NCBI RefSeq assembly: GCF_032444005.1
Contig: NC_091282.1
Coordinates: 892,180,001-892,244,000, forward strand
DNA length: 64,000 nucleotides
Reading direction: 5' to 3'
DNA from: Ranitomeya imitator
Taxonomy: Eukaryota
Below are positions 26,083 through 56,520 of the stretch, piece by piece. Position numbers and translations under genes: made by a program. Position 1 is the first letter of the stretch. Each line of letters starts with the position of its first letter. A model generated the notes under the pieces. The model was given only the letters and a program-made list of their open reading frames with translations, did not search any database and had not been told where the DNA came from.

Positions 26083-26877
26083 TAATAGCTCTGGAACAGA
26101 GAAGAAATTTAAAAATCGACAAAAACTATGTTTTACTGCGCTTTACAGCCATTATAACATGGAGTGAGCAGTTCAACATGAAAAATTTGGTTAAAGGTCC
26201 TTTTTAGGAATCGCAGCTTCTTCACTATTTACCCATTCCCTTGAGTGAAACTATATTGTTCCCAGTACTGTGGGTGTCTTTGCCACTATAAGAACTAATC
26301 AAAGCATAGGTTTTGATGATTGGAGGGCAACAAGGAGACCAGAATGCTCCAATATATTCTAGAAATGTGTCACAGCATTTAAAAAGTAAAATTGGTAGAG
26401 CTATTAGAATCTATGAGCAGGAATTTGGTCCATCAGCAAAATTGGTACTCTGGCCACTTTAGAGGAGGCCTGCAAATGGTGTAAGTCTAGTGTGTGTGTG
26501 TCTCGCCACAATGATGACTTGGCAGCCTAGATCATAAAAAGACGAGGTAGTTAGGAGACTCTTAGGGCTTCGGTCCAGCGGTCAGATTATTGACTTGGCA
26601 AATGGACTGGAGAGCTGCGAATCTCACCTGCCACCTTTTTTTTTACTATGCATTGTGCATTCCCCACTATTTTGGCGGTGCCCGCTTTTTGAAATGATCT
26701 TTGCTCTGTTCTCCCATGTCTAATAATTATATTTTTTAAATATTTACATTCTGATCTCCTTGTAACTGTCCAATCAGCAAAAACTGTTGTAGTAGTTCTA
26801 ATATTGCTAGTCTTCTCTATAAAAGCATTTGATGTGATATTTATTTTCATAAATGCTGTATTTGTGCGTAGCCTTAC

Positions 26878-26956
26878 CTTTTCATTTAAAATTTCCACTT
26901 TAACCCATTCAGCTTTCGGATTCACACATACAATATTGCTGTTTTTCAGAAAAATG
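26878..26956 (-). CDS. CXCL13: CXCL13-like CXC chemokine, third coding exon (fourth Cys)
   Basis: Acceptor ttttatttgtttcag, phase 2, then IFLKNSNIVCVNPKAEWVKVEILNEK, then AAG|GTAAGG. Matches human CXCL13 VWKKNKSIVCVDPQAEWI as recalled. Orthology is not proven, so treat as CXCL13-like. Confidence 0.85.
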
Positions 26957-26971
26957 CTGAAACAAATAAAA

Positions 26972-27500
26972 TTACAGAAGTTACATAGGTTGAAAAAAGA
27001 CCTAGGTTCATAAAGTTCAACCTTTTTCCACCAATTATGCATTTTTCACTAAATTAACTATAACCCACAATGTTGTATGTATCGAGCAAATCATCCAGTT
27101 TTTTTTGTGTTTTTTCTTTTAACCTGTCAGTGTCTGCCATTACTACCTCTTGTGGTAGGGCATTCCACATTCTGACTGCTCTAACTGTATAGAATATTTT
27201 TCTGTTTAGAAGCCAGAAACTCTTCCACCCATAATGAGTTCCCCCTGGTCCTTGGTATGGTCTTTTGGGAGGGATAAGTCATGTGCCAGTGTTTTGTACT
27301 GACCACACACATATTTATACATGAGAATGAGAACCCCTCCGAGGCGTCTTTTTTTCTAAACCAAACAAGGCCAACATTTACAACCTCTCCTCATATGAGA
27401 GGCCTTCCATTTCAGGTAATAATCTAGTCCCCTTTATACTGACTCTAACTTCTGAATATAATTTTTAAAATGTGGAGCCCAAAACCGGATCCCATATTCT
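26972..27500 (-). mobile_element. CR1 3' fragment
   Basis: Decayed ORF2 C-terminus and the 3' end gttgaactt...ctaggtcttttttcaacctatgtaac. Confidence 0.7.
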
Positions 27501-27742
27501 AGACAAATTAAACAAAGATAGCAAAAATTAATGCAATGATAAAGATTTTTCTCTTGCTTTACAGGTGTGACAGTCTACAAAAGGTTAGAAGTAATGGAAA
27601 ATTGTTGACTTGACACAAATATCTCAGTATTCAGGGACACACCTCTTCATATTTAATACCAGGACAGTTTTGACTAGTTTACTTCTTACAATTGCTTTAT
27701 TTTGCTGCACATTCAGCTGTACCCTAATGAACTTTTACTTAA

Positions 27743-28071
27743 AGGGACACTGTCACCTGAATTTGGAGGGAACAATCTTCAGCCATGGAGGCGGGGTTTT
27801 GGGGTTTTTGATTCACCCTTTCCTTACCCGCTGGCTGCATGCTGGCTGCAATATTGGATTGAAGTTCATTCTCTGTCCTCCGTAGTACATGCCTGCACAA
27901 GGTGCAATCTTGCCTTGCGCAGGCGTGTACTATGGAGGACAGAGAATGAACTTCAATCCAATATTGCAGCCAGCATGCAGCCAGCGGGTAAGGAAAGGGT
28001 GAATCAAAACCCCAAAACCCCGCCTCCATGGCTGAAGATTGTTCCCTCCAAATTCAGGTGACAGTGTCCCT
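27743..28071. mobile_element. T2/Kolobok-type palindromic MITE
   Basis: TTAA flanks, AGGGACACTGTCA termini, near-perfect self-complementarity. Confidence 0.88.
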
Positions 28072-29167
28072 TTAACTTCAAAAAGTTATTTATAATCTGC
28101 ATCAGTTTTTTTTACTGTTTCTTCAGTTGTATATCTAGGGGTGCAGGTGGGAGACGTTCCTCGAGCACAGCCAGCAGGGGGGTGCAGTCAGGCCACCTGA
28201 TGTGGCCCTCCAAGGTACCTCTCAGATGACTGAATTTTGTGGTATGAGTACAATTGAAGCCCTGACCGCTGGCAATTTTGAATGAGGAGATGTCAACAGC
28301 GTGATCAGATGATCTGATTCTGCTGCCGATGTCATTCTCCTGTGCCATATATATGTTGGTGGTATACGTTGGTATAGTAAGTATTTCAATAAAGCTGAAT
28401 AGCAGCTTTCTAAAGCTGCCCGTCCATCACAGCTATATGGATGAAGTTAATTTTACGCCTCCCAGCAGCCTCTGACTTTGTCATGGAGGAATATCAGTGT
28501 GTTTGTACAGTCACTGCTCAATACACAGTGGCAGCTGCAAGTATTCTCTGGCACTTTAACAGTCAATGCATCAGTACAGAGCCCTGTCAGTGCTGTGATG
28601 TGCTTACAGCCACAGCTCACTGGGTATTGAGCGTTGACTGAAAACGAATCGGCACTCCTCTAGGTTCATTTTCTCCCGGTAGCTGCGCTTTCTTTAGCCA
28701 TTAATTGCAGATTAACCATATATCTGAAGGTTAATAGCATTTGGAGATGTGACAGGTTCCCTTTTTAAATGTCCCCCTCCATGCTGCCCAATTTCCATAC
28801 TGAGTAGCCTCCTTCACGCTGTCCCCCACTCTGTTCCCCTTATACTGCCGAGTCTCTATATTGTGCAGCCACCTCACAACACCTCCTCTGCTTACGGTCA
28901 CCTTCTTGCTGCCCACTTTCTTTACTGCTCCTCACATCTATCCAATCTCTATACTGTCACCTCAAACTTTTTACCACCCATATTGTCCCCTTGCACATTC
29001 AAGCATTGTCCCCTCAAAAGTCCTTCCCTTTCCTCCACTCATGTAAAATGTATCCAAATCCTCGACTCCAATTTGGGCGCTAACCTTTTTCACAGCACAG
29101 GAAGACCATTTCTTTATGGCGTTGATGTGATGTCAGTAGCATGATGAGATTGTAGCTCATTAGGTAC

Positions 29168-29974
29168 TGTAGCGCGTTAGGTGGCAGGGAAGAGAGTGGA
29201 CCTTCTGGACCGTGGAAAAGACCTACCCCTGGGCGAGCTGACCTAATTACACCGACCCCTATACAGGGGCAAGCCCAGAGGAGCCAAAACCACAGTGGCC
29301 GTACCAAGTGGGGCAGCTCAAAAGAGAAGACAAGGACTGAGGGGAAAAAGCCGATGGAGGGTGGAGAACAAAAAGGATAACTAAGCGGGCAGGACCGATC
29401 CACTGGAACAGGAAGACGGATGTCAGACCGGAATGGCATGGATGCCGAGACAGGAGAAGGCTGCAGGGAAAGAGAGAGTAAATAATGGAAGGCTAAATAG
29501 GAACAGCGAAGAAGCTGGGAAAAAACGAACAAAACAAACAACACAGGGAAGAAGCAGGCAAGACGAAGGCAAAGAGCTCGGACTACGCAGTACACAAGAG
29601 AAAGACTGAGAGCAGCGGTAGAGCGAACAGGCCAGATGCACAAGCGGAGGCTATATGACAATCAGGCACCGCAAAGCAGGAAGGACAGCCTCTTATAGGA
29701 TAAGTCTTACTTGGATTGGCTGTCACTGGAGAGTTCTGGGGATGGAGGAATAGCAGAGGAGCGCATGCGTCCTTTGAAGATCCCAGAGCGCCTGCGCAAA
29801 CATCGGACACCCCTGACAGCGAGATACCGGAAGTGAAGAGAAGATCTGAGGACGAGCGCACAGTGGCCTGGAAGAGGAGCGGCGGGGATGCGCAGCGGCA
29901 GGAAGATGGGACACCGCAACGGGAGAGAAGCTGGGACCTGGACGAGGGGGCACGCAGCGACAGAAGCGGTAACA
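29168..29974. mobile_element. Probable solo LTR of another family
   Basis: TG...CA ends around an ~800-bp LTR-like block; no TSD found. Confidence 0.5.
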
Positions 29975-30113
29975 GATGACTTGATCACACTGCTAACGTC
30001 ACACTGATCCTGGAAGTGTCAGCGGTTAGAGATTCAATTGTAGCTGCAGATGAAAGACTCGAGTACAATTGAATGTACACCAAAACCTTATTATGAAATA
30101 GTAGGGTCTTGAT

Positions 30114-30430
30114 TAGTGATGAGCGAATATACTCGTTACTCGAGATTTCTCGAGCATGCTCGGGGAGCCTCCAAGTGTTTTTTTTTTTTTTTTTTTTTAG
30201 TGCTCGGAGATTGTTTTTCTTGCCACAGCTGAATGATTTACATCTGTTAGCCAGCATAAGTACATGTGGGGATTCCCTAGCAACCAGGCAACACCCACAT
30301 GTACTTATGCTGGCTAACAGATGTAAATTATTCAGCTGCGGCAAGAAAAACTAAATCTCCGAGCACTAAAAAATACTCGGAGGACCCCCGAGCATGCTCG
30401 GGAAATCTCGAGTATATTCGCTCATCACTA
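30114..30430. mobile_element. hAT-type palindromic MITE
   Basis: tagtgatgagcgaatatactcg / cgagtatattcgctcatcacta TIRs; 8-bp TSD gtcttgat/gtcttaat. Confidence 0.85.
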
Positions 30431-31479
30431 GTCTTAATCTTAACACACCAGAATATAGACCTCTAAAAAATTAACCTTTTATTAAAGATGATTAAAAAAG
30501 GAAAAATCAAACTATTTCTAGTTGTCAAAAAAGTGCACAAAATTAGAAATGGGGGGGGGGGAAAGGAGGGTATAATAACTTAACTTAATTTAACTAGGGC
30601 TAAACTCTCCCTAGGTTAGCCCTAGATTCACCCTTCCTACCAGCGGAGGTTGGCACCCTAATTTGTTGACGTATTGGCGCCCGCGCTCAATGTCGGTAGC
30701 CCTAAAGGCCCTGCTGCACCCTAAAAATCTTAACACTAAAATACACAAAAAATTGGACCGTATTATCCAAAAATTATCTCGTGGTATATCTCAGGAGAGA
30801 TACTGCAAAAATCATAGAATCACATAAGTACTCTGTTTAAATGTTGGGGTAAAAAAAATCTGTAGTCCACGTTAGTGATCTTTTTAGTCTACAGTTCAGA
30901 TAATGAAAAATATAGTTCAGATAATAGTCAAATAGATATTGGAGCCAAAAATATCAGTAGTCACATTTGTGATCTATTTATACTAAAGTTCGAATGATAG
31001 TATAGTTATTCAGATCAATATCCCTATTGCAATGCCCGTAAGGTCAACACAGTCCTGTGACATGCGTATCCATAGTTTTGTGACCTATATATCAATAATA
31101 GATTCATGACCCAAAAATATAACACACGGAGAAAACAACTCTATTACACTATGCCTATAAAATTCATGTAGTCCTATGTCATATACATCAATGATCATTA
31201 CATGACCCAAAATGACAAACAGGGTATTAACAAACTGAACATAGTTCAGAACTCCCACTAAAAAAATAAGCGGTCTTATTTCTCTCCTGATTAGACAATC
31301 CAGCACACCAGTGGCTATACAGTCAAATAGTTTCAATGAAAGTTTCCACATAATCGTCATACTTATCAGCCATTGTTCAGCTCACTCTATTGTCCAACCG
31401 CTTCCCCCTTAGATATAAGGGTTCATCAGGGGACTTGGGGTTGTGGGCTTCAATGTCCCCTCTGGCCGTGGTCAATGCT

Positions 31480-32400
31480 GTGTGTGGAGAATATTTGTAG
31501 GGATCAGAGATGCACGTGCGGATGGATAACAATCCCCTGGCTCACCTGGAAAATGCGAGGCTGGGTGCACTGGAACAGAGGTGGGTCACAAGAATGTCCA
31601 AATATCAGTAGATCTCCGACTGGTGTAACTCTCAGAACACAGAGGTGGATGTGGATGAAAAGCTCGAAGGTGATACGTTTCTGGACTTCAGTTTGCCACG
31701 ACTGTAATAACAGACCAAGAGTCAAGAGAAAAGTCCAGACCCACCCAGATTCTAGGTTGGTCCACAGATCAGTGGATACACCAGCAGTCGTCACCCTATG
31801 ACAAAAGTGTGACCAGGAGGCTAGGACTACTTTACGCGCGAGCACCCTGCAGACCTTGGCCAGTGGGAAAGGCTCTTTATGAAAAATAGTTTGCGGTGTC
31901 GAAGAATCCAGCTTCCTCAGGAGTTTGATGTCACCTGACAAGTGGTAGTTCCAGAAGTATTGGTGGTGCAGTTGGTTAGAGGCTCACTTTGGAGTGGAAA
32001 CCTGCTTTCGGTGGTTAAAACAAATTGTGTATTGATCCTGACTGCGACAAGTAGTCTGCGAGGTCTGCTGAAAATGTTGCCCCTACAAGCTGAAAAAACT
32101 CCAGAAACAGAGGACCCATATTATGGCCATCCGGACCTCCGCGCTCTTGAAGTGTTGATGATCGACTACTTGATGATCGGTGCATCTCACAATGGCTATG
32201 AATACCGATTTCTTCATGAAGTTCATGTAGCTTTATCACCGAATGCCTGATGTGGAAATAAATGGCGTTGTACATCATACAAGTTTAAAACAATGATGGT
32301 TGACTTTTCCGTTGAGATTACCAGAGGATCCATCAGTGGTCTTTACTTCTAACCATTATGGGCCTTAAAGATGCAGCAGCAACCAACCACATTTGGAGGT
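31480..32400 (+). pseudogene. Decayed Gypsy pol fragment (RNase H end and integrase start)
   Basis: DNNPLAHLENARLGALEQRWVTRMSKY, then HFGVETCF...CxxC and LEVLMIDYL in shifted frames. Confidence 0.8.
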
Positions 32401-32694
32401 GACAATGAGGTAAGTTACTTACCATTAGGGTCTATTTCCTTTGCATTGATTTACAAACCACCTATAAGTTCTTATTGATGATATACCCTTTGTGTGCAAT
32501 GATAACCACAAATCGGTTGTGAGCCAGCAGGATTAAAACGTCCAACACTGGGTAGGTCCACTGCAGTATATCCATTGTAATCTAAGCTGTTACCATTTAC
32601 AGTATACTGTACCATTGGTTGTAGTATTCTCCTCCTAACAAATTCAAAGGTCGGTCTGTGCTTCACAATAATATGTCCAACTATGTACTTGGTG

Positions 32695-33217
32695 AGAATA
32701 ATAATAATAATTATAATAATAATTTTTATTTATATAGCGCCAACATATTCCGCAGCGCTTTACAAATTATAGAGGGGACTTGTACAGACAATAGACATTA
32801 CAGCATAACAGAAATACAGTTCAAAATAGATACCAGGAGGAATGAGGGCCCTGCTCGCAAGCTTACAAACTATGAGGAAAAGGGGAGACATGAGAGGTGG
32901 ATGGTAACAATTGCTTTAGTTATTCGGACCGGCCATAGTGTAAGGCTCGGGTGTTCATGTAAAGCTGCATGAACCAGTTAACTGCCTAAGTATGTAGCAG
33001 TACAGACACAGAGGGCTAATAACTGCATAAAGTGAATTAGAACATGATGCGAGGAACCTGTTTTTTTTTTTTTTTTTTTTTATATAAATAGGCCACACAG
33101 GGATCGTTGGCCTATTTATATAAAAAAAAAAAAACAGGTTCCTCGCATCATGTTCTAATCCACTTTATGCAGTTATTAGCCCTCTGTGTCTGTACTGCTA
33201 CATACTTGGCAGTTAAC
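32695..33217 (-). mobile_element. L2-type LINE 3' end with fold-back at its 5' truncation
   Basis: Minus-strand tail tgtaaagcgctgcggaatatgttggcgctatataaataaaa(att)n; inverted arms at 32977-33094 / 33109-33217. Confidence 0.8.
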
Positions 33218-34280
33218 ATATTTCCTGGTAATATTTACTCCCAATACTAAGATGTGGCACCCCAGGAGTTCGTGTACCACCGTAGAGCTGCCTTCCTCTC
33301 GGGGAGGGTAGTGCTATGCCTGGAGACAAGAGAGATCCCCTTGGCAGGTAATCTCACACACAACACCTTCTGAATCCAGGCCAGGAGGGAGAGCTAAAAA
33401 CCTGGTTTTAAGGCAGCTTCCCTGAATAAAGATTCTGGTCTGGAGGAGGAGTTAAGTCAGTCGAGTTCAGTGTACTGTAGTCGGAGAGTGGACAGAGACA
33501 GGAGAGGAGCACAGTAAAAAGGCAGAAAGGCTCAGAGGGAAACTGCTACCGGGCACCCTCAGAGCTGGAGCACAGAGGCCGGGCACTGTGAGGTCGTGGG
33601 AGCCTGCAAGTCGCACGACAGAATCGGAATGCATAGGATTATACGTAAATTGCATGTTTTAAGCCTGTGGTACAGCAGCATTCTGGAGACTGGAGTCACC
33701 GTGCAGAGACCCCAGAAGGAACGGCTCAAGCTGCCTAACAATACAGGTACTGTCCCAGGACAGGAAAGAACGAGGACCTTGTTAGGATACTTCAGGCAAC
33801 AAGGGACTAATAGTGAGCACAAAGTGGTAGGCTCCCAACCTGACCTGCCAAGGGGACTTCTTGTTTCCAGGCTGCCTGGACTCCTTCTGTACCTGTTGCC
33901 GGTGTCCTGGACTGTGGCCTGCTACCAACAGTAAACCAGGTATAGACTGCAACCCTGAGTCCTCTGTTATTTACCGGAAACATATCATCCCTGCCATATA
34001 GGTTGGGAGCTCTGGGGACCCCGCTTCACCTGTGGGAAGCGTCACTATCCAGCCACCATACCATCACCCCAGAGGACCCCTTTAAGCGGCATCTGTCCCT
34101 ACTGACCAAGAACCACAGGTGGCATCACGAAAATAGACTTTCACAATACCCCAATTTTCACAATTCCCTTTTATTTGAGTCCCAGGGCCACGGACCGGGT
34201 CGCAGCCACCGTGACACCCCCTTTAAGAGCGACCACACCCGATACAGAGTACTCCACTGCCCTGGTGAGCACTCATTTCT

Positions 34281-34299
34281 TGGCATCATGAACAGGATT
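34281..34299 (+). promoter_or_regulatory. Primer-binding site, tRNA-Ser(CGA)-type
   Basis: tggcatcatgaacaggatt vs TGGCGTCACGAACAGGATT (complement of a vertebrate tRNA-Ser-CGA 3' end as recalled); two CpG-type transitions. Confidence 0.7.
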
Positions 34300-34654
34300 T
34301 CGTGCCCTGGCATCGCCAGGTACTGTGTGCCAGAGACCGTGACGGTTTGTTTGCAAATCACCTTTGCCGCGCCGCGTGGAGCGCGAGGGGAAGGAGGCGC
34401 ACCTTTGTGGGTGGAGCTGGCCAAAAAGAGCACGAAGAAGGAGACGGGTGCTGCTTTGCAAGAGGAACACCGCAAGTGAAGACACTGTACAGCAGAGCTG
34501 GAAGTGGAGACACTGTGCGGGGGCCCTGAATAGAGGACCGGGAAAAGTGCCCAACCGCATGAGAGGAATGGCTGCAGACTGCACACTGGAGGAACCACTA
34601 CAGACTCTAGAGGAGAGACACCGGCCTCTATCAGGTTAGCACGGTTGAGAAGCT

Positions 34655-36580
34655 ATGTCTGACCTGAGAGGAGAATTGGCAGCGGTCGCAGCCGCAGGAC
34701 CCATGGTACTCCCAGGCCCCGCAGTGGACCCAGCCGCAGGCCCTATACTACCACCAGGCCCCACAGTGCCCGCAACTCCAAGCCGGCCAGACCCCGATGC
34801 AGCGGACGCAGCCACAGGCCCTATTGTTGTGAATTCTGTTGTCAAGCTCCCTCCTGTGGTCATGAATGGTACTTCGGCTGGTTTTGTCCATGGGGCTGCA
34901 GCTTCTGAGTTTCCTTCCACAGGTGACGAGGTTAATTCGTTAGCTGGCTGCTCTATTTAACTCCACTTAGATCATTGCTCCATGCCACCTGTCAATGTTC
35001 CAGTATTGGTCTAGTTCACTCCTGGATCGTTCTTGTGACCTGTCTTCCCAGCAGAAGCTAAGTTCCTGCTTGTTTTTCTTTAGTTTGCTATTTTTCTGTC
35101 CAGCTTGCTATTTTGATTTTTGTCTTGCTTGCTGGAAGCTCTGGGACGCAGAGGGAGCGCCTCCGCACCGTGAGTCGGTGCGGAGGGTCTTTTGCGCCCT
35201 CTGCGTGGTCTTTTTGTAGTTTTTTGTGCTGACCGCAAAGTTACCTTTCCTATCCTCAGTCTGTTCAGTAAGTCGGGCCTCACTTTGCTAAATCTATTTC
35301 ATCTCTGTGTTTGTATTTTCATCTTTACTCACAGTCATTATATGTGGGGGGCTGCCTTTTCCTTTGGGGAATTTCTCTGAGGCAAGGTAGGCTTATTTTT
35401 CTATCTTCAGGGCTAGCTAGTTCCTTAGGCTGCGTCGAGTTGCATATTGAGCGTTAGGAGCAATCCACGGCTATTTCTAGTGTGTGTGATAGGATTAGGG
35501 ATTGCGGTCAGCAGAGTTCCCACGTCTCAGAGCTCGTCCTATATTATTTGTAACTATCAGGTCATTCCGTGTGCTCTTAACCACCAGGTCCATTATTGTC
35601 CTTACCACCAGGTCATAACACCCTATACTACCACCAGGCCCCACAGTGCCTGCAGCTCCAGCAGCTACAGCACCCATAATGCCGCTGTCCATGCCATATA
35701 TTCCTGGAGCGGCCTGGCTTCCACAGTGTTCCGGGGAGTCCCATACATAAAGTGACTTTAAGGAAAGGCTCTGCAGCCTATTTGAGGTATATCCCCGACC
35801 GAGTATCAAAAGGTCAGGATATTAACTGGCCAACTGATTGGCGCGGCCCTATGAGAGGTAAAATCCTGGTCAGATGTGGAAAAAGGAACTGTGCAGCAGA
35901 TATTTACCAAATTTAAAATCACCCTTGACACCCGCACTGCTGCAGAAATCAAAATAAAGTTTTTCGGATGCAAGCAAGGAACACAGGATAGCATACGGGA
36001 CTATGCCCTTAATTTGCAAGAGGCACTGCGGGCCATCAAACAGGTTGACCCTAACAGCGTACAGGATGGGGATAAGCTCTTAAAGGAACAGTTCATTGAG
36101 GGACTCCTGTCTAGCACCCACAGGACACAGCTGCGAATCCTGGCCTTGCAAAACCCTGACCTGGACTTTGTAAAATTTAAAGACAGGGCCATCCGGGTGC
36201 TGCATGAACCTCAGCCCAGCTGCACAGTGCCCTTTAGACGTCCAGCCCTCACGTACCACCAGGAGGTGGCATCATATCCTCAGGTCCCGGTTGAGGTTGA
36301 CGCACAGATCCTGGATGATGACCCCTCCACAGGACTGCGCCTCCAGGTCCAGGAACTGATTAAAAGTGTAGCTGCACTAGCCCGGACCGTGCAGTCCCTA
36401 CAGGAATCCCAAAAGAGAAGATCAAGCTGGCTTCCAGACTGGAGGACATCCCCTGGCGACGACAGAAGAGAATCCTGCTGACCAGAGGAAGAGACGATGA
36501 CTGCTATCATCCGGATGGATGACCCACCTGCCAGTGCTGCAACCAGGCAGGACACATTGCAAGGTACTGTCATTTAAACG
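34655..36580 (+). pseudogene. Gypsy gag, split by a solo LTR and carrying stops
   Basis: Pro-rich N-terminus; SIRDYALNLQ and LKEQFIEGL in ORF 35876-36481; CQCCNQAGHIARYC knuckle. Confidence 0.85.
34825..35620 (+). mobile_element. Solo LTR inserted in gag
   Basis: tgttgtgaattc...ggtcataaca; perfect 6-bp TSD ccctat. Confidence 0.92.
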
Positions 36581-36639
36581 AGCGACCCCTGGGGCAGAGG
36601 GCCAACCCCAGGAATAGGATGACCAGGCCCACAAAACTG

Positions 36640-39600: not shown

Positions 39601-40598
39601 GCAACCTGCGCAGAAAGGACCGTGACAGCCAGAGGGCTCCCCTACAGCCCATAATCACCAAACAGCCACTTGAACTGGTGGCCTTAGACCACGTGAAGCT
39701 AACTCCAAGCTGGTCAGGCTATGTCTATGCTCTCACCATTGTGGACCATTACTCCAGATTCCTAATAGTAGTAGTACCTGTCAAGGAGCAGACAGCAAAG
39801 ACGGCAGCCAAAGCCTTCCAACAACACTTTTGTTGACCACACAGATACCCTGATAAGGTACTCACCGATCAAGGCCCAGCCTTTGAAGCGTAAGTGTTCC
39901 AGGAGTTCTGCAACCTGTACGGATGCAAGAAGATAAGGACAACCCCATACCACCCACAAACAAATGGCATGTGTGAAAAGATGAATCAAATAGTAATTGG
40001 CTTACTAAAGACCTTGCCTTTACACGAAAGAAACTTATGGCCAGAGAAGGTGCCAGACTTGGTAGATCTGTACAATCACATCCCAGTGAATTCCACCAAC
40101 TGCACTCCAGCCTACCTGATGAGAGGAAGATCTAGCAAATTACCTGTTGATCTTGATATGGGAGTCCTCACACCAGAAACTACCTCACCAGATGAAGATT
40201 GGGATAATGAGCGAAAACAGAAATACCGCCAAGTACAAGAATGTGTGGAAAGAACCTTGTCCCAGGCGAGACAAAAACAAAAGAAAAACTACAATCAACG
40301 TGCCCCTGCAATTCCCTTGTCACCAGGTGAACAAGTTCTAAAGCGTAAAATGAGAATGCACAAACTCGATGACCAGTGGGAAGCAGAACCATATACCATC
40401 TTACCATCAAACTTTGACAACACTAAAGTCTGTCTAATAAGCAAAGATGGAGGAGAAACTTCAACTGCGGTATCCAGAGATCATCTTAAAGTATGCCCTG
40501 ATAAACTAAGAGACAAGGAAAAAGACCCCATTACTTCTCAACTTACAGAAGAAGAAAAGAAAATCCATACTGTTCTTGGAGATTTTCCCCAGTTTTAG
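36640..40598 (+). pseudogene. Gypsy pol (PR-RT-RH-IN) with stops and frameshifts
   Basis: LLDTGS; CVDYR, LPRI, TAFTTP, MPFRL, NQDD (decayed YLDD); MDASN; GHFG...CxxC, LDH, TDQG, PYHPQTNG. Confidence 0.93.
38589..39273. mobile_element. hAT non-autonomous element inside pol, with a 22-bp minisatellite (ggatggggcagaatgcggagtc)n at ~39010-39175
   Basis: TIRs caggggcgtaacta / tagttacgccactg; perfect 8-bp TSD cccagcag. Confidence 0.9.
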
Positions 40599-43519
40599 AC
40601 TACAGTACACCGAGCCATAGTAATACCTGTCTTGACTTTTCCCCAGTTGGAAATACCAGAAGAAGTGACTCAGAACCATCCTGAAACAGAAGAGACTTTA
40701 CACCAGCGGGCTCAAGCAGCAAACCTCACCCCAGGAGTCGAACCAGAGAATCCACCGTTTGCGATCGGTGAATGTCAGACCTATGGTGAATGTAAGAAGT
40801 CGCAGACAGTTACCTAGTTTACCTATACAGTGCAGGCCTACAAGTAGTACAGGAACTAGTGGGTACACGACAGCTACAGCAAACATATTAGACCAGGAAC
40901 TACGTAGGTCTATTCGTAGCACCAGGGGTCAAATCCAAGCCCGTTACAGGGACTAAAAATATCAATAATTGGTGTTACCTGTTTGAAGTGTTTGCATATA
41001 CTGCATTTGTTACAGGTTTAAAATGGACAAAGGGGTAATGGACAGTGAACTGCCCAAAAACTGTTTTTTGTACATAGTTGGCACCCTCAGGGTGCACCCT
41101 GGTACTACCCACTTTGCCGGTGTGGGTAGGGCCTTGTTTCTTCAGACCTGAAACTAAAACCATCTGGCGTGGCGAACACCGGGTCTGGATATGCCTTGTA
41201 GCCCGCCCAAGACCTACGTTGGGGGTTTATGATGGGTCCCTCACTTTGGTACTGTTTATATGAACAAGGACACCCTGGTATAAGACCAGTTGTACATTTA
41301 TAAAATGTTTATTTGCAACGTTCAAGCCAAAATTGCCCCCCGTAAGGGAAGAAAAAGTTATTAACCTGTTGAAATGTATCTGAAAATTTTTTTGCACCGT
41401 GTAACCTGTTGTTTGTTTCCTTTTCCCTGTCCAGGAGTACTGGATTTAACAGGGGGGAGGAACGTGGCATCCCAGGAGTTCGGGTATCACAGTAGTGCTG
41501 CTTTCCTCTTGGGGAGGGTAGTGCTATGCCTGGGGACAAGAGAGATCCCCTTGGCAGGTAATCTCACACACAACACCTTCTGAATACAGGCCAGGAGAGG
41601 GAGCTCAAAACCCGGTTGTAGGGCAGCTTCCCTGAATAAAGATTCTGGTCTGGAGGAGGAGTTAAGTCAGTCGAGTTCAGTGTACTGTAGTCGGAGAGTG
41701 GACAGACAGGAGAGGAGCACAGTAAAAAGGCAGAAAGGCTCAGAGGGAAACTGCTACCGGGCACCCTCAGAGCCGGAGCGCAGAGGCCGGGCACTGTGAG
41801 GTCGTGGGAGTCTATAAGTCGCACGACAGAACTGGAGTGCATAGGATTATACGTAAATTGCCCATTTTAAGCCTTTGGTACAGCAGCATTCTGGAGCCTG
41901 GAGTCACCGTGCAGAGACCTCAGAAGGAACGGCTCATGCTGCCTACCATACAGGTACTGTCCCAGGACAGGAAAGAACGAGGACCTTGTTAGGATACTTC
42001 AGGCAACAAGGGTCTAATAGTGAGCGCAAAGTGGAAGGCTCCCAACCTGACCTCCAAAGGGGACTTCTTGTTTCCAGGCTGCCCGGACTCCTTTTGTACC
42101 TGTTGCCGGTGCCCTGGACTGTGGCCTGCTACCAACAGTAAACCAGGTAAAGACTGCAACCTTGAGTCCTCTGTTATTTACCGGCAACACATCATCTCTG
42201 CCATATACCTTGGGAGCCCTGGGGACCCCGCTTCATCTGTGGGAAGCGTCACTATCCAGCTGCCATACCATCACCCCAGAGGACCCCTTTAACTGGCGTC
42301 TGTCCCTACTGACCGAGAATCACAAGTAGCGTCACGAAAATAGACTTTCACAATACCCCTTAAAAGACCGTTCCCTTTTATTTGAGTCCCAGGGCCACGG
42401 ACCGGGTCGCAGCCACCGTGGCATCCCCTTTAAGAGCGACCGGACCCGGTACCGAGTACCCCACTGCCCTGGTGGGCGACTCAGAGACCTACACCAAACT
42501 GACCGTCATAATACATAGAATACTAGATATTATTTTAGTTACCATATTTTTTGGACTATGCCACACCTTACCGATGCGTAGCTAGGGGTTCAGCTCCAGG
42601 GAAGGGGGGAGAAGCATCTGAGTGGGCCCCTAACAGGCGGACATATCATTGGTGCAACCTGTACGGCCTCACAAGGGTGCAACCTGTGCGGCCTCACAAG
42701 GGCGCAAGAGATAAGGGGACTCTTTTCACCTCCAAAAGAAGTGCAATTTTGCATTTTTAGGAGCTCTTGGGCTGCAAACTGCCCATATATTGTTTTTGCA
42801 CAGGGGCCCTTTTCCGTCTGTCCCCTGACCAGGTAACCATGATTATAACTACGGTGGGTATAGGGGAACCTTTAGGAGATGCCTGCACTGTTATTGAAAA
42901 TAAACCTCCTATACGAAGACCAGCACTGATATTACTACCCGATGGTGACATATAGTGGTAGATGCCAGTCCTACAGAACATATAGAGATTACATTACAGA
43001 TACAGATGGTGACTTACAGATGTTCTTTCTGGTGGAGTCGTTTTCACGTCTTTTCCATCTGTCTCAGACTGAGATGACAACTTCTCCAGCCTGGACTCAT
43101 CTGTAGACAAAGACATATTTGACTTCTAACATTTCCAGCACCATTCACATCTATTCCCAACTTGCACAAACCTCCTAATCCTGCTGATACCCCAATACTG
43201 AGCTAATGCTGCTGTATGTGTCCCTATTTTGCACTTGCTGTTTGGCACAATAACAGCGCCTCTTAGTGCCCCACATAGTGAGTCCACCACTGTGCCCCTT
43301 ACGTAGTAATAATGCCTCCTTTGTGTTCTGTAGATGTAAAAAGTGCCCCTTAGAAAATATTAATGTCCTGTGCATGTGCCCTCCACGTTTTGTCAGTAGA
43401 AAGTAAAAATACCCAATGTGCAACTTTGATGGTCACAATACCGAGTGGCCCTATACCAAAAATGCTTAAATGCCCAGTTAACATTTAGTAATCTTTCCTG
43501 AGTTCCCCACGTAGAGCAT

Positions 43520-43900
43520 AGCTCCACTATACCCAGTATAGTGGGCCCACAGCTACTCTATACACCATATGATGATCCCACAGCTCCCCTATACACAGCA
43601 TTATGGGCCTATAGCTCAACTATACACAATATAATGCCCCCAGAGCTACCCTATACACAGTATATTAAGCCAACGCCTCCCATATACACAGTGTAATGCC
43701 CCCACAGCTTCCTTATACACAGTATGATGGGCCCACAGCTCTACTATGCACAACATTATGGATCCACAGCTCCCCTATACACAGTGTAATTCCCCAATAG
43801 CTTCCTTATACACAGAATTATGGGCCCACAGCTCTCCTACATATAATGCGATGTCCCCCAGAGTTATCCTATACATTTAATGATGTCCCCACTGCTCCCC
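43520..43900. repeat. Degenerate ~36-bp minisatellite (cacagctcccctatacacagtatgatgggcc)
   Basis: Repeated units visible; probably internal to a MITE. Confidence 0.7.
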
Positions 43901-45720
43901 CAAATCACAAATAGCCAAAAAATGGAGTTCCATACATTATAGTAAAATCAATAGAAAAAATACTTTATTGCACATGAAAAAATATACAAAATAATTCAAA
44001 ATTGTATAAATAGAATACAACAAGGAAAAAAGACCCTAGTAAACCACACATAGGTCCGAGGCATAGAAAAATATATTCATCATAAATATCATCATGGTAC
44101 TAATGCTAAAGTACTACTGATTTGTGCAGTTAATTATGGTGTCAGCCCTATGTATTGGTAACAGGCTTTGAATTTAATCCCATAATATAAAGCACCACAT
44201 AAATCTGCACTCTTCATATTAAGTCTCCATAATGGCAAAGTGCCATCCCCGCAAGGAATAAATACATGAAAGAGACAAAGTGTCACCAGTTGCAAAGTTG
44301 CTTACCCATGATCAGAGTGACTTGATGCCCGGGACTCCAGTCCACCCCCTAACGTGCATTTCACGTAGGCTTTCTCAAAGAGGGAATGAATAGAGCTCCC
44401 CAGGTCTGGCGTTTTATAGCCACATTCATTTCACAGCGTGTCATTAGTGCGCACGCGCACCCCCATTACCGCCGGAAGTAGATTCCCGCTCCCCGGCATT
44501 CACCAGGAGTGCACGTCAAGGGGAAATCCCCTGTTGATGTCAAGATGACGTGCGCGCCTATAACTCTGAAGCTGGAGACACAAGGACTCTACAACAGGTG
44601 TGGGGCGCGTGCGCAAAACAGCCATGTGAATAGTAGAAACCCTAATGACCAAAAAGGATATGTAGATGGTAATTAAGGCATTTAAAGCCTGGAAAAACAA
44701 ATAAATAGAAGGAAAAATCAATGATTAATACCATGATGAGTTAGAATTATATCATATAAAGTGCAAAAGTGCTGATCAAAGTGCAAAAATAGTGCTGTGA
44801 AAAAACCTCTGTGATAATATAATAAACATATTACAACAGTGCATCAACAATTCTATATATATAAAAATGATTATGAGAACATACAATACGTGTATATTGA
44901 TGCTTACTAATACTGAAACAGTATTGTGCTAAATAAAATGGTGTAATAAACACTGAATATCATCATATCATCATGACATACTAAAATCACCATGTTTTTC
45001 ACAACGTTTTCTTGACAAAAACATAAATTCATATATTCCTCCTTCAAATGAATTTCCACCATCTTCAATTTATGGAAATGGAAAAACTCAATCTAGGGGT
45101 ATGAAAATAATGTAAATTAAAAAAAAAAAACACAAATCAAAAATGAAATTTATTAACATGAAAAAATTAAAATCGATAAAAATTGAGTTTACAAGAATTG
45201 TTACCACTGCTAGCACAAAAAGGAGGGCACGGGAGAACAAGGGCCCTCACAAGAAAGGGGCAAAACTTAATCTCTCATTTAATCCAACAGGGGACATAGT
45301 CCAGGGCCACAATCCATCTACATTCTACCTGTGCCAACAACCGTTTGACGTTCCCTCCTCTGTTACCACCATGTACCTGATCAATTCCAATAATCCGAAG
45401 ACCCCTGGGATCACATCCATGAAAAGTATGGAAATGTTTTGGGATGGTTTTAAGGGTGCTGACGTCCTCAACCTTACGTGAATTTATGATGTCCCTTATG
45501 TGTTCCCTGACACGAACGTGAAGCTGACACGACGTGAGCCCTACATAAATTTTGGAGCAAGGACATGTGGCCAGATATATTACAAATGTACTACTGCAAT
45601 ATATGTGATGTTGAATCTGAAATTTCATCTTTGCATTAGATGACATGAAATGATTAAATTCTTTTCTTTGCAAGCCAAGCAATCCCCACAGGGGTAACAC
45701 CCCCAAGTTGGTCCTCTATT
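43900..45720 (-). mobile_element. Penelope-like element 3' part: GIY-YIG endonuclease remnant plus pseudo-LTR region
   Basis: ORF 45275-45706 has CSSTFVIYLATCPCSKIYVGLT...VREH and ECRWI; hammerhead-like motif downstream. Left boundary approximate. Confidence 0.85.
44345..44384 (-). ncRNA. Degenerate hammerhead-like motif (U3-A8 variant core)
   Basis: ccctct-TTGAGAA-agcctacgt-GAAA-tgcacGTT-aggggg; stem I can pair, stems II and III are damaged. Confidence 0.4.
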
Positions 45721-48717
45721 AGTGGGATTAAGGGGATTCGTAGTCTTAGCCACATAGTGGCTTTTCACTAATAGGTCCTTAACCCCTTCATGACCCAGCC
45801 TATTTTGACCTTAAAGACCTTGCCATTTTTTGCAATTCTGACCAGTGTCCCTTCATGAGGTAATAACTCAGGAACGCTTCAATGGATCCTAGCGGTTCTG
45901 AGATTGTTTTTTCGTGACATATTGGGCTTCATGTTAGTGGTAAATTTAGGTCAATAAATTCTGTGTTTATTTGTGATAACGGAAATTTGGCAAAAATTTT
46001 GAAAATTTCGCAAGTTTCACATTTTGAATTTTTATTCTGTTAAACCAGAGAGTTATGTGACACAAAATAGTTAATAAATAACATTTCCCACACGTCTACT
46101 TTATATCAGCACAATTTTGGAAATAAAATTTTTTTTTGCTAGGAAGTTATAAGGGTTAAAATTTGACCAGCGATTTGTCATTTTTACAACGAAATTTACA
46201 AAACCATTTTTTTTAGGGACCACCTCACATTTGAAGTCAGTTTGAGGTGTCTATATGGCTGAAAATACCCAAAAGTGACACCATTCTAAAAACTGCACCC
46301 CTCAAGGTGCACAAAACCACATTCAAGAAGTTTATTAACCCTTCAGGTGCTTCACAGCAGCAGAAGCAACATGGAAGGTAAAAATGAACATTTAACTTTT
46401 TAGTCACAAAAATGATTTTTCAGCAACAATTTTTTTATTTTCCCAATGGTAAAAGGAAAAACTGAACCACGTAAGTTGTTGTCCAATTTGTCCTGAGTAC
46501 GCTGATACCTCATATGTGGGGGTAAACCACTGTTTGGGCACACGGCAGGGCTTGGAAGGGAAGGAGCGCCATTTGACTTTTTGAATGAAAAATTGGCTGC
46601 ACACCATGTCACATTTGGAGAGCCCCCATGTGCCTAAAAATTGGAGCTCCCCACAAGTGACCCCATTTTGGAAACTAGACGCCCCAAGGAACTTATCTAG
46701 ATGCATAGTGAACCCTTTAAACCCCCAGGTGCTTCACAAATTGATCCGTAAAAATGAAAAAGTACTTTTTTTTCACAAAAAATTTCTTTTCGCCTCAATT
46801 TTTTCATTTTCACATGGACAACAGGATAAAATGGATCCTAAAATTTGTTTGGCAATTTCTCCTGAGTACACCGATACCTCACATGTGGGGGTAAACCACT
46901 GTTTGGGCACATGGTAAGGCTCGGAAGGGAAGGAGCGCCATTTGACTTTTTGAATGAAAAATTATCTCCATCGTTAGCGGACACCATGTCGCGTTTGGAG
47001 AGACCCTGTGTGCTTAAACATTGGAGCTCCCCCACAAGTGACCCCATTTTGGAAACTGGACCCCCCAAGGAACTTATCTAGATGCCTAGTGAGCACTTTA
47101 AACCCTCAGGTGCTTCACAAATTGATCCGTAAAAATGAAAAAGTACTTTTTTTTCACAAAAAATTTCTTTTCGCCTCAATTTTTTCATTTTCACATGGGC
47201 AATAGGATAAAATGGATCCTAAAATTTGTTGAGCAATTTCTCCCGAGTACGCCGATACCTCATATGTGGGGGTAAACCACTGTTTGGGCACACGGCAGGG
47301 CTCGGAAGGGAAGGCGCGCCTTTTAACTTTTTGAATGGAAAATTCGCTCCAATTGTTAGCGGACACCATGTCGCATTTGGAGAGCCCCTGTGTGCCTATG
47401 CAATGGAGCTCCCCCACAAGTGACCCCATTTTGGAAACTAGACCCCCCAAGGAACTTATCTAGATGCATACTGAGCACTTTAAACCCCCAGGTGCTTCAC
47501 AGAAGGTTATAATGCAGAGCCATGAAAATAAAAAATAATTTTTCTTTTCTCAAAAAAGATTTTTTAGCCTGGAATTTCCTATTTTGCCAATGGTAATAGG
47601 AGAAATTGGACTACAAATGTTGTTGTCCAGTTTGTCCTGAGTATGCAGATACCCCATATGTGGGGGTAAACCACTGTTTGGGCGCACGGCAGGGCTCAGA
47701 AGGGAAGGCACGCCATTTGGCTTTTTAAATGGAAAATTATCTCCAATCATTAGCGGACACCATGTCGCGTTTGGAGAGCCCCTGTGTGCCTAAACATTGG
47801 AGATCCCCCACAAATTACCCCATTTTGGAAACTAGACCCCCAAAGGAACTAATCTAGATGTGTAGTGAGCACTTTGAACCCTCAAGTGCTTCACAGAAGT
47901 TTATAACGCAGAGCCATGAAAATAAAATAAAAAAATTATTTTCTCAAAAATGATTTTTTAGCCCGCAATTTTTTATTTTCCCAAGGGTAACAGGAGAAAT
48001 TTGACCCCAAAAGTTGTTGTCCAGTTTCTCCTGAGTACGCTGATACCCCATATGTGGGGGTAAACCACTGTTTAGGCACATGCTGGGGCTCGGAAGTGAA
48101 GTAGTGACGTTTTGAAATGCAGACTTTGATGGAATGCTCTGCGGGCGTCACGTTGCGTTTGCAGAGCCCCTGATGTGGCTAAACAGTAGAAACCCCCCAC
48201 AAGTGTCCCCATTTTGGAAACTAGACCCCGAAAGGAACTTATCTAGATGTGAGGTGAGCACTTTGAACCCCCAAGTGCTTCACAGAAGTTCATAACACAG
48301 AGCAGTGAAAATAATAAATACGTTTTCTTTCCTCAAAAATGATGTTTTAGCAAGCAATTTTTTATTTTCTCAAAATTAGCAGGAGAAATTGGACCCCAGC
48401 AATTGTTGCGCAGTTTGTCCTGAGTATGCTGGTACCCCATATGTGGGGGTAAACCACTGTTTGGGCACACGTCGGGGTTCGGAAGTGAGGGAGCACCATT
48501 TGAATTTTTGAATACAAGATTGGCTGGAATCAATGGTGGCGCCATGTTGCGTTTGGAGACCCCCTGAAGTGCCTAAACAGTGGAAACCCCTCAATTCTAA
48601 CTCCAACACACCCCTAACCCTTATCCCAACTGTAGCCGTAACCCTAATCACAACCCTAACCCCAACACACCCCTAACCCTAACCACAACCCTAATTCCAA
48701 CCCAACCCTAACCCTAA

Positions 48718-49061
48718 GGCTATGTGCCAACGTTGCGGATTCGTATGAGATTTTTCAGCATCATTTTTGAAAAATCCGCGGGTAAAAGGCACTGCGTTTT
48801 ACCTGTGGATTTACCGTGGATTTCCAGTGTTTTTTGTGCGGATTTCACCTGTGGATTCTTATTGAGGAACAGGTGTAAAACGCTGCGGAATCCGCACAAA
48901 GAATTGGCATGCTGCAGAAAATACAACGCAGCGTTCCCGCACGGTATTTTCCGCACCATGGGCACAGCGGATTTGGTTTTCCATATGTTTACATGGTACT
49001 GTAAAGCTGATGGAACACTGCTGCGGATCCGCAGCCAAATCCGCACCGTGTGCACATAGCC
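48718..49061. mobile_element. Harbinger-type MITE (family of 5890-6229)
   Basis: ggctatgtgcca / tgcacatagcc TIRs with TAA TSD. Confidence 0.8.
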
Positions 49062-49070
49062 TAATTCTAA

Positions 49071-49414
49071 AGGTATGTGCACACGCTGCGGAAAACGCTG
49101 CGGATCCGCAGCAGTTTCCCATGAGTTTACAGTTCAATGTGAACCTATGGGAACCAAAAATCGCTGTACACATGCTGCGGAAAAACTGCACGGAAACGCA
49201 GCGGTTTACATTCCGCAGCATGTCACTTCTTTCTGCGGATTCCGCAGCGGTTTTACAACTGCTCCAATAGAAAATCGCAGTTGTAAAACCGCAGTGAAAT
49301 GCGCAGAAAAACCGCGGTAAATCCACAATAAATCGGCAGCGGTTTAGCACTGCGGATTTATCAAATCCGCTGCGGAAAAATCCGCATAGGACCAGAATAT
49401 GTGTGCACATTCCT
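49071..49414. mobile_element. Harbinger-type MITE
   Basis: aggtatgtgcacac / gtgtgcacattcct TIRs, preceded by TAA. Confidence 0.75.
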
Positions 49415-51214
49415 ACCCCTAACCCTACCCCTAACCCTACCCCTAACCCTATCCCTAACCCTAACCCTACCCCTAACCCTACCCCTAACCCTAACCCTAA
49501 CCCTAGTTCTTACCCCAACCTTAGTGAAAAAAAACAATTCTTTATTTTTTTTTATTGTCCCTACCTATGGGGGTGACAAAGGGGGGGGGGTCATTTACTA
49601 TTTTTTTTATTTTGATCACTGAGATAGGTTATATCTCAGTGATCAAAATTCACTTTGGAACGAATCTGCCAGCCGGCAGATTCGGCGGGCGCACTGCACA
49701 TGCGCCCACCATTTTGGAAGATGGCGGCGCCCAGGAAAGAAGACGGACGGACCTCGGGCGGCTAGGTAAGTATAAGGGGGGGGAGATCAGGGCACGGGGG
49801 GGGGCGTTGGAGCACGGGGGGTTGGTTCGGAGCATGGGGGGGTGGATCAGAACACGGGGGGGAGGATTGGAGAACGGGGTGGGGGATCGCTGTGCGGGGG
49901 GGGTGGATCGGGGCACGGGGGGGGATCGCTGTGTGGGGGGGTGATCGGAGTGCGGTGGAGTGTGATTGGGGCACGGGGGGTGTGATTGGAGCACGGGGGA
50001 GCGGACAGGAGGACGGGGGAGCGGAGCACAGGACGGAGGGGGGCGGACCACAGATCGGGGGGCTGGGTGGGCGATCGGTGGGGTGGGTGCACATAAGTGT
50101 TTCCAGCCATGGCCGATGATATTGCAGCATCGGCCATGGCTGGATTGTAATATTTCACCAGTTTTTTAGGTGAAATATTACAAATCGCTCTGATTGGCAG
50201 TTTCACTTTCAACAGCCAATCAGAGCGATCGTAGCCACGGGGAGGTGAAGCCACCCCCCCCCCCCCCGGGCTAAAGTACCACTCCCCCTGTCCCTGCAGA
50301 TCGGGTGAAATGGGAGTTAACCCTTTCACCCGATCTGCAGGGACGTGATCTTTCCATGACGCATATGCTGCGTCATGGGTCGGAATGGCACCGACTTTCA
50401 TGACGCAGCGTATGCGTCAAAGGTCGGGAAGGGGTTAATGCTTTTTCCTAGTCTGGCTGTAAAACATGGTGTCTCAGGCATGTTTGATGCTAAAGAATCC
50501 GTAAGAAGTACAGGCCAGTGTGTATTAATTATCTCCTGCATACGCTTCCAATAACAATTGTACGTAGAGATGAATCTGATATTATTTTCAGATGTAGCTT
50601 TCTTCTCTTTTTTTATACAGTAGCTGATGTCTATCTTTTTTTTTAGCCCTAATGTACCCTTGTTTTATACAGCGGTTGCTGTATCCACTGCAGATGCTGG
50701 CTCATGGTCCCTGAGGTGTCCCATCTAGTCTGGGATACTTGGCTTTGTACCACATATACCTCTTGCACTTCCGTTTGGGGTAGTGGGATCCACTCTCCTC
50801 CAGCATTCAAGCCTCATTGCCGCAGAGTGTTCACCGGTTAGGAACGCAAATGATGTGGGTTAGAACATTCCCGGCATTCTCTTGCAAAGAGTCTCATGTG
50901 TCCATAGCTATTACAGTGTAACCACCCCCCCTTGCTCCGATGGGGGCGTACTTGGGAAACCTCCCCATCTTTGTGAAGTCCAAAATGCCCGCAGTTCCTC
51001 CTTTTGTCAGTCCATGAGTCTCACTGGCCTCCCTACAAGCCTCTGTTCCTGACTCTATGGGGCTGTCCTTTCACGTAGCCCAGATCGATTGGCAGACCAA
51101 TCTTCAGCCAATCTTGCAGTCTCATCCAGGCTGAGTATTTTTTTTTTTTTTATCCACCACCCATTCTTTTAAGCCACCTAGGAGCTTGGAAATAAATTGT
51201 TCCAGCATGAATAT

Positions 51215-52009
51215 TGTTGTGAATTCTGTTATCGAACTCCCTCCTGTGGTCATGAATGGTACTTCGGCGAGTTCTGTCTATGGACTCCCTCTGGTGGCTG
51301 TGAGTGGAGCTGCTGCTTCTGAGGTTCCTTCCACAGGTGACATAGTTTATTCTTTGGCTGGCTGTTCTATTTAACTCCACTCAGATCGTTACTCCATGCC
51401 AGCTGTCAATGTTCTTGTACTGGTTCAGTTCGCTCTTGGTTCTTTCTGGTGACCTGTCTACTCCAGCAGAAGCTAAGTCCCTGCTAGTTATTAATTTGTT
51501 CATGGTTTCCTTGTCCAGCTGGCTATCATGATCTTGCCCTGCTAGCTGGAAGCTCTGGGATGCTGAGTGGCACCTCCGCACCGTGAGTCGGTGCAGAGGT
51601 CTTTTTGCACACTCTGCGTGGTCTTTTTGTAGGGTTTTGTGCTGACCGCAAAGTTACCTTTCCTATCCTCTGTCTGTTTAGTAAGTCTGGCCTCCCTTTG
51701 CTAAAACCTGTTTCATTTCTGTGTTTGTGACTTTCGTCTTAACTCACAGTCAATATATGTGGGGGGCTGCCTTTTCCTTTGGGGAATTTCTCTGAGGCAA
51801 GGTAGGCTTTATTTTCTATCTTTAGGGCTAGTTCGCTCTTAGGCTGTGAAGAGGCGTCTAGGTTGTGTTAGGTACACTCCACGGCTATTTCTAGTTGTGT
51901 GATAGGATTAGGGGTTGCGGTCAGCAGAGCTCCCACTTCCCAGAGCTTGTCCTGTGTGAGTTTAACCATCAGGTCGTTCCGGGTGCTCTTAACCACCAGG
52001 TCCATAACA
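51215..52009 (+). mobile_element. Solo LTR (family of 9577 and 34825)
   Basis: tgttgtgaattc...ccataaca; perfect 6-bp TSD gaatat. Confidence 0.92.
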
Positions 52010-52760
52010 GAATATATCCAAGACGGGCTCTGCTTCTAGGAGTTACCGCATACCTCTTTCGTAATTTTCTGTGAATGGTATAGTAACAGCTCTGACCCCT
52101 AGGAGACAAGTTATTAAACACTCCTCTTGCTTTTCCGGTGAGGTCAACTCTTAAAAATCTTGACTAGTCATCTGCTGACACCTCATGCAGCAGGCAGAGG
52201 TTCTCAAATAACCAGAGATGTTTATCAATATCCGTTGTCAGTAAGCAAATATCCAATAAAACACAACAATCAGTTCAATATAATCGGCGCTCCATGCTGG
52301 AAAAAGTCTGCATCCCTTAGAGCCGTGGATTCCGTTCTATGTCCATTGGTCCAGTAGTCTTTAGAACAAGGCCAACTCCTCCCACACACACACTATAAAT
52401 TACTACATCTTGCAGTTCCTATTTGGGACCTGAATAGAGGGTGCAGCAGCTGAGCAACTGTAGGACCTTCCACACAATTAACTCAAGGACCTTTCAGGTC
52501 ATGTGACCAGAGCAGGAAGAGATAGTGCAGCTCTCTCTGTAATCAGGAAGGATAGTCTGTCATTATTCTCCTACATCACAGGAAGCTGCCTCCAGTCTAT
52601 AAGACTCACAGGCACGAGTTTTTCCTGTTAAAAAGTGCATCTTATAGTTTAAACAACTTAGTAATTTACTCTATTTTTCAGTTATCAGCCAGTTGCTCAG
52701 AATTTTGAAGACCTATTCCTTATCAGGAAAGACTATACACAATATATCTAATATACTTAC

Positions 52761-52893
52761 ATGATTTCTTTCTTTCTGCAATTTTGAGTTTCATACAAAA
52801 CTTTAACACGTTGAAAATGTTTCCGTTGAATGACCTCATTTGTCGTTTTTAAGCATTTACACCTTCTTCCGACATGTTTGCTTTCCCAAATGC
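52761..52893 (-). CDS. CXCL13: CXCL13-like CXC chemokine, second coding exon (C-K-C motif and third Cys)
   Basis: tttacag|GC (phase 1), IWESKHVGRRCKCLKTTNEVIQRKHFQRVKVLYETQNCRKKEI, AT|GTAAGT (phase 2); 133 bp; no ELR. Aligns without gaps to recalled human CXCL13. Orthology is not proven. Confidence 0.9.
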
Positions 52894-53475: not shown

Positions 53476-53750
53476 AGGGAACCTGTCACCAGGTTTGGCC
53501 AGCAAGATATGCGGCCATCACCTTTCAGGGCTGATATACAGCATTCTATAATGCTGTATATCTGCTCCCAACCCGACCTGTAGCAGAAGAAAAATTAACT
53601 TTTATTATACTCCCCTGTAGGGTGGTCCGGTCTGATGGGTGTCACTCTTCTTGATCCGGCACCTCCCTTCTTCTTGCGATACTGCCCTCCTGCTTGCCTG
53701 AAAGGTGATGGCCGCATCTCTTATCAACCAAACCTGGTGACAGGTTCACT
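53476..53750. mobile_element. T2/Kolobok-type MITE
   Basis: TTAA-agggaacctgtcacc...ggtgacaggttcact-TTAA. Confidence 0.8.
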
Positions 53751-55190: not shown

Positions 55191-55229
55191 AGTAAAGTAA
55201 CAGCCTGGACTGCATGCCCCCAGGAGTCT

Positions 55230-56518: not shown

Positions 56519-56520
56519 AA

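Follow-up and report, generated by a model that had tools for sequence, protein, structure and literature searches.

The question raised by this locus is whether two short chemokine-like coding segments, kept apart on the minus strand by a long run of transposon-derived DNA, belong to one working gene and, if so, to which one. They lie in a window of 64,000 nucleotides (nt) of the Ranitomeya imitator genome (G000:C1:892180001-892244000, in an assembly of 5.96 Gb), "window" being used here for the whole stretch that was analysed. The original prediction had joined them into a hidden two-exon gene resembling CXCL13. Both exons are real, but the gene has four, the pair being exons 2 and 3: very probably, they are part of an intact CXC chemokine gene which, of two CXCL13-like genes in tandem, is the one on the CNOT6L side; it encodes a 94-residue protein, predicted to be secreted and likely to draw CXCR5-bearing B cells.

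The sequence agrees with the two exons as they had been placed: each is preceded by AG and followed by GT, and their reading frames, free of stops, carry four cysteines. These residues (C33, C35, C60 and C76, the first two in the C-x-C arrangement) are invariant across 54 aligned rows, and are preceded by G-R-R, so that the Glu-Leu-Arg (ELR) motif is absent. When compared to the Pfam family IL8, exon 2 matches positions 2-34 (E 0.0037) and exon 3 positions 35-54 (E 0.00081), each slightly below the curated cut-off of 21.3 bits; since the two matches tile adjacently, abutting without overlap, the pair is more than a chance association. CXCL13 is the top match of each exon, taken singly, among 177,635 PDB sequences (E 0.01 and 0.0014), and the alignments contain no gaps, as had been anticipated, with the register kept over the joint between the exons. 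The 614 kb surrounding the window, searched with a profile as 21,462 six-frame pieces, returned two exon-2-like and two exon-3-like pieces with E <= 4e-5, the next-best piece, at E 0.47, being exon 1; the same search found no chemokine-like piece inside intron 2.

The joint itself was looked for in sequencing runs. For exon 2, 24 runs are listed, none of them recorded as RNA, and four runs were mapped on the exon 3 side (26110-26985); the RNA status of run X3 is a guess. In X3 a single contig of 261 nt, at depth 2.1, covers 26895-26960 and continues into a loose end of 195 nt, in which 30 letters out of 30 are identical to positions 52765-52794, the end of exon 2. Because of this match, and of the four letters past the acceptor which fit the end of exon 2, the junction is placed at 52761-to-26956, exactly the splice that had been predicted. 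The length of the loose end would fit the remaining part of exon 2 plus exon 1. A contig of run X9, from organism B and from a separate study, departs at the same place as the X3 contig; X5, a DNA run of organism B, is continuous through the exon 3 acceptor. A second exon 2 was not found elsewhere in the genome, so that the joined X3 contig is unlikely to stem from a retrocopy. In comparison with exon 3, X5 features two listed differences, both silent and in third position; in the 386 nt after exon 3, it features 23 listed substitutions and 6 indels. Run X4 has no contig on exon 3 and the putative RNA contigs stop short of 26878: these are treated as blanks and not as evidence.

Exon 1 was found, 38,735 nt upstream of exon 2, by matching one hyloid orthologue: its 22-residue hydrophobic leader matches the orthologue leaders, and is a putative signal peptide. 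Exon 4 was located by a relaxed scan, as the initial scans required a C/T-AG acceptor and hence overlooked its AAG site. The pattern occurs once in 928 kb, both strands included, and in 1.5% of 200 Markov shuffles (null 0.015), with a threshold picked after seeing the site; AATAAA is present in the 3' untranslated region (UTR) at 15340 and 15267. Another exon 4 candidate, at -80.5 kb, was rejected, its position being beyond the CNOT6L exons. On sequence grounds, exons 1 and 4 are predicted to be spliced to exons 2 and 3: their 64, 133, 79 and 9 nt would add up to 94 codons plus the stop, in a gene extending over about 76 kb (~76,000 bases) for a coding sequence of 285 nt.

CXC chemokine genes usually have four exons, their introns being of phases 1, 2 and 2; the original prediction had appealed to the phases of its two exons as standard for the family. 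The present gene conforms to it in the number of exons and in phases 1 and 2, but not in the third intron: the donor after exon 3 is of phase 0, where the neighbouring copy has phase 2, as presumably does mammalian CXCL13. The GT of this donor is retained in organism B. Hyperolius isoforms part at the same codon boundary as the end of exon 3, and because of this the phase-0 third intron looks old in the frog lineage. By eye, the codons past the exon 4 stop are similar to the longer tail of an Engystomops homologue, which suggests a shortening of the C-terminus in several hyloids.

The deduced product may be compared to named proteins. A search with exon 2 retrieves the 'C-X-C motif chemokine 13-like' of Anomaloglossus and Hyla, to which cluster and follow-up searches add orthologues from Phyllobates, Dendrobates, Ranitomeya variabilis, Bufo and Dendropsophus. 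These hyloid models, six of the seven bearing the CXCL13 name, represent the same gene: all have 94 residues, and all end with Val-Lys/Glu-stop at residue 94. The product is 93/94 identical to XP_077116650.1 (Ranitomeya variabilis), the single difference being in the signal region, and 66-90/94 identical to the six further orthologues, among them XP_073511308.1 (Phyllobates terribilis, 90/94), XP_075193768.1 (Anomaloglossus baeobatrachus, 82/94) and XP_056407899.1 (Hyla sarda, 72/94). The gene had been described as easily missed: neither exon was among the 24 matches of a Pfam scan made exon by exon, but the orthologues are already named at NCBI for seven hyloid frogs. For annotation, the gain is a complete model, with four exons, of a B-cell-type chemokine gene of a frog, the exons of which escape open reading frame or exon-wise Pfam scans.

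The flanking genes identify the locus as that of CXCL13, between CCNG2 and CNOT6L. A plus-strand CNOT6L exon, 51/52 identical, is found at window-equivalent position -39.7 kb, and the last exon of the gene, identified by its motifs, near -12 kb. On the other side, at 404-409 kb, lies cyclin G2 (CCNG2; exon 91%), the ESM Atlas label for its exon being Cyclin_N only. According to the profile search of the 614 kb, exactly two CXC genes lie between them, the present gene being the one on the CNOT6L side. In the CCNG2-side copy (G000:C1:892344273-892354116, window-equivalent 164273-174116, minus strand), the first three exons were located, of 67, 136 and 81 nt, with phases 1/2/2, separated by introns of 2,412 and 7,148 nt. 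The same arrangement is given for Xenopus, where PMC8811506 places cxcl13a and cxcl13b in tandem between ccng2 and cnot6. A table in PMC3568907 lists more than one CXCL13-group gene for several non-mammals and a single one for mammals. Mammalian CXCL13 has a longer, basic tail, in contrast to the shorter tail of the present frog protein. None of this is new: the gene is already modelled in congeneric and related frogs, the tandem pair at this locus is published, and so is this kind of intron inflation.

Some minor observations concern the surroundings of the pair. For Hymenochirus and Ascaphus, proteins of this CXCL13-like group have locus tags next to those of their cyclin G2 homologues. A Ribosomal L1 search found nothing corresponding to MRPL1 on C1. 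A cluster of CXCL8-like and CXCL9/10/11-like exons is located at G000:C1:905.5-907.0 Mb, 13-15 Mb off on the CCNG2 side, a placement in agreement with the mammalian chromosome order.

Relationships were evaluated by trees, for which the best 150 of 274 profile-search matches were used, 20 of them given names. FastTree was run on the 149 of 171 proteins kept by cysteine pattern, Xenopus P0018 being among those left out; the main tree includes 64 hand-chosen rows and 72 columns, and most of its outgroup rows are unnamed, their classes being presumptive. The main tree puts the present gene with Hyperolius and Aquarana, in a group of frogs (99/93) within a CXCL13 set of 53 rows (95/94). The two frog copies are far apart, each in its own frog group, and the CCNG2-side copy is weakly grouped (85/62) with X. 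laevis 'CXCL13' (P0018). FastTree joins the group of the present gene to sauropsid CXCL13-like genes at 0.88, a fork which the main tree leaves unsettled. By the approximately unbiased (AU) test, p is 0.49 for its grouping with the sauropsid genes, 0.35 with mammals and 0.25 with the other frog copy, none of which is rejected. Phylogeny, which was to judge the CXCL13 label, favors it through the CXCL13 set but, as the AU tests reject none of four groupings, the label derives mainly from synteny. The model of the R. variabilis orthologue (predicted local distance difference test score, pLDDT, 81.8) shows three strands and a C-terminal helix; its top 10 PDB fold matches are all CXCL13, with 35-40% identity to human CXCL13 chains in the fold alignments. 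The likeness to human and mouse CXCL13 thus includes the best match in both sequence and fold, the ungapped spacing of cysteines, the missing ELR and the flanking genes. Taken together, the junction, the 94-residue frame, the synteny and the CXCL13 set bear out the intact amphibian CXCL13-like gene that had been proposed.

Several points weigh against this picture. The exon 2-3 junction, the only one of the three seen directly in reads, is found in one contig of low depth, whose RNA nature is guessed; the AAG acceptor of exon 4 is uncommon. Close homologues carry different NCBI names (interleukin-8-like, permeability factor 2-like), and, with 16 K/R and 8 D/E, the mature chain falls short of mammalian CXCL13 in basic character, its tail being shorter too. 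The 72-column tree leaves the deep forks unsettled, and even when the gene is grouped with two CXCL9/10/11-like rows, the AU test gives no rejection (p 0.24). The heavy transposon load, the presence of a neighbouring copy and the low contig depth would also be in line with two exons coming from different genes, or with a dead gene; but the X3 contig joins exons 2 and 3, no other chemokine exon lies between them, and the full frame is nearly identical to a named orthologue, so that such a reading is largely refuted and most improbable. A different gene structure has to be considered as well, in which the transcript ends with exon 3, or keeps intron 3, and the protein is extended by 96 residues beyond the GT at 26877. 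The frame does continue open for 96 codons beyond this GT (26587-26877, minus strand), with a chance of about 0.003 by a local Markov model, in a test chosen after the observation; a read-through isoform is annotated in Engystomops (P0158), and an X9 contig, at depth 4.4, lies over 26492-26637. In organism B, however, frame-breaking indels (+4 at 26846, +1, -4) are found in that stretch, in one contig of depth 2.9, and the exon at 15756 gives exactly the ending shared by all seven orthologues: we regard the longer protein as improbable. The idea that the Val-Lys-stop of the orthologues is itself a read-through of the GT, the stop having been lost here, was dropped, as the frame is broken in organism B and exon 4 was found at 15756.

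For the four-exon gene, the first 22 residues would be cleaved and the protein secreted; the 72-residue mature, non-ELR chain would fold as a chemokine with two disulfides. Because CXCL13 of mammals and the chicken copies do so, the protein may, by analogy, act on B cells via CXCR5, a role that we favor slightly. The gene could instead be a copy that has diverged towards a different receptor or task (acting on other leukocytes, or directly on microbes), the CXCR5/B-cell role being kept by the CCNG2-side copy. The distance between the two copies, each in a separate frog group, would fit, as would the cut-down tail of the CNOT6L-side copy and, for the CCNG2-side one, the weak link to X. laevis 'CXCL13' and the conserved 1/2/2 phases; in chicken, PMC5736565 reports no binding of L3 to primary B cells. 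In that same paper, however, all three chicken CXCL13 copies induced chemotaxis of a B-cell line, with CXCR5 named as the receptor. The CNOT6L-side copy has no ELR motif, which also speaks for the CXCR5 role; the diverged role is a plausible, though not the favored, reading. Frog CXCL13 is of some interest, since antigen-presenting XL cells of Xenopus express CXCL13 without germinal centres, according to a review (PMC10450919); two copies permit a division of labour.

Extra tandem CXCL13-type genes are also represented by the sauropsid CXCL13-like genes (turtle; chicken CXCL13L1-3) and by vIL-8 of Marek's disease virus, where the start of the mature chain is similar by eye; two of the chicken copies and vIL-8 have three exons according to PMC5736565, while the present frog gene has four. 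We tentatively suggest, as a rather unlikely view, that the CNOT6L-side frog copy might be an ancient tetrapod sister of CXCL13 and not a frog-only duplicate: its orthologues would be the CXCL13-like genes of reptiles and birds (the source of vIL-8), and it would have been lost in mammals, kept by selection in frogs and never studied in amphibians, and may serve a cell type or tissue other than that of the classical copy. No functional work on the second frog copy turned up in the literature searched, in which subscription papers were thinly covered.

The features of the gene and the elements of its second intron are reported in Table 1; where no contig is indicated, positions are those of the window.

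Table 1. Parts of the CNOT6L-side chemokine gene and repeated elements within intron 2 ("." indicates no assigned strand)
Feature	Position	Strand	Description
Exon 1	G000:C1:892271629-892271692 (window-equivalent 91629-91692, outside window)	-	64 coding nt, hydrophobic, signal-peptide-like; phase-1 GT donor
Intron 1	52894..64000 (part inside window)	-	38,735 nt in total
Exon 2	52761..52893	-	133 nt, phase 1 to 2; C-x-C without ELR, third cysteine
Intron 2	26957..52760	-	25,804 nt, GT..AG
Exon 3	26878..26956	-	79 nt, phase 2 to 0; fourth cysteine, C-terminal helix
Intron 3	15757..26877	-	11,121 nt, phase 0; putative
Exon 4 (putative)	15245..15756	-	pyrimidine tract, AAG acceptor, Val-Glu-stop, 3' UTR; 3' end approximate
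Gypsy-order long terminal repeat (LTR) retrotransposon, broken	33253..42483	+	two LTRs of ~1.02 kb; PNMA-like gag, reverse transcriptase, RNase H and integrase pieces in short frames
Solo-LTR-like element, 0.8 kb	34825..35620	.	TG..CA, 6-bp target duplication; nested in LTR retrotransposon
Solo-LTR-like element, second copy	51215..52009	.	82% alike; TG..CA, 6-bp target duplication
TTAA-flanked element, 4.66 kb	45779..50437	.	11-bp inverted ends, 394-bp tandem array, telomere-like repeats
GIY-YIG-like fragment, possibly Penelope-type, weak	45278..45715	-	beside TTAA-flanked element; E 0.026, 15.3 bits (cut-off 22.6)
3' end similar to a long interspersed nuclear element (LINE)	26975..27500	-	by eye, without Pfam match; stops ~20 nt before exon 3 acceptor

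The length measured for intron 2 agrees with the predicted 25.8 kb. It is 12-35 times that of the second introns of four other chemokine genes sampled in the genome (0.75-2.1 kb), and 3.6 times that of the 7,148-nt intron of the neighbouring copy. With hand-set bounds, 17,948 of its 25,804 nt (~70%) are assigned to named repeats; blastn against 550 kb of surrounding sequence covers 8,672 nt. The introns would have grown by successive, nested transposon insertions sparing the splice sites, as in large poison-frog genomes: PMC11152451 reports, for D. tinctorius, the same pile-up of LTR, LINE and DNA elements in introns, with gene size tracking genome size, although the present intron 2 is outsized relative to the sampled chemokine introns. 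The insertions would simply be tolerated, and a role for them seems unnecessary.

The predicted contents of this intron hold for the LTR retrotransposon, the solo LTRs and the TTAA-flanked element, but the Penelope piece is weak and no transposase was found. The LTR pair (33253-34275 and 41463-42483) is 92.3% alike over 1,023 nt, with an imperfect left end of the second LTR and an imperfect target duplication. The "piggyBac-like" label of the TTAA-flanked element comes from end motifs which we presume to be typical; frames of at least 100 residues inside it gave no Pfam match to a piggyBac transposase and, if piggyBac, the element is at best non-autonomous. A Pfam scan of short frames located outside the LTR element, covering 69 out of 86, matched no reverse transcriptase accompanying the GIY-YIG fragment. 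The LINE-like tail, presumably such from its pattern, may supply or displace the branch point of exon 3, whose splicing persists.

Other repeats were noted along the way. By eye, an older Gypsy-like pol fragment was recognised at 31500-32700 (plus strand), just outside the first LTR; the frames scanned gave no Pfam match. One element family, with tandem units of 385-394 bp and telomere-like CCCTAA arrays, is present in three copies (17000-19000, 23800-25700 and 45779-50437), two of them in intron 3. Intron 1 contains, at 58493-58819 (minus strand), a DDE_3 transposase fragment of the Tc1/mariner type. Between exon 4 and CNOT6L, LAP2alpha-like gag, reverse transcriptase and RNase H frames are found at 8577-11813 (plus strand), in a layout that we take to be that of a DIRS-type element. 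At 56-1782 (minus strand), a CR1-type LINE features GDSL-esterase and endonuclease frames, and near-identical copies of it occur elsewhere in the 614 kb.

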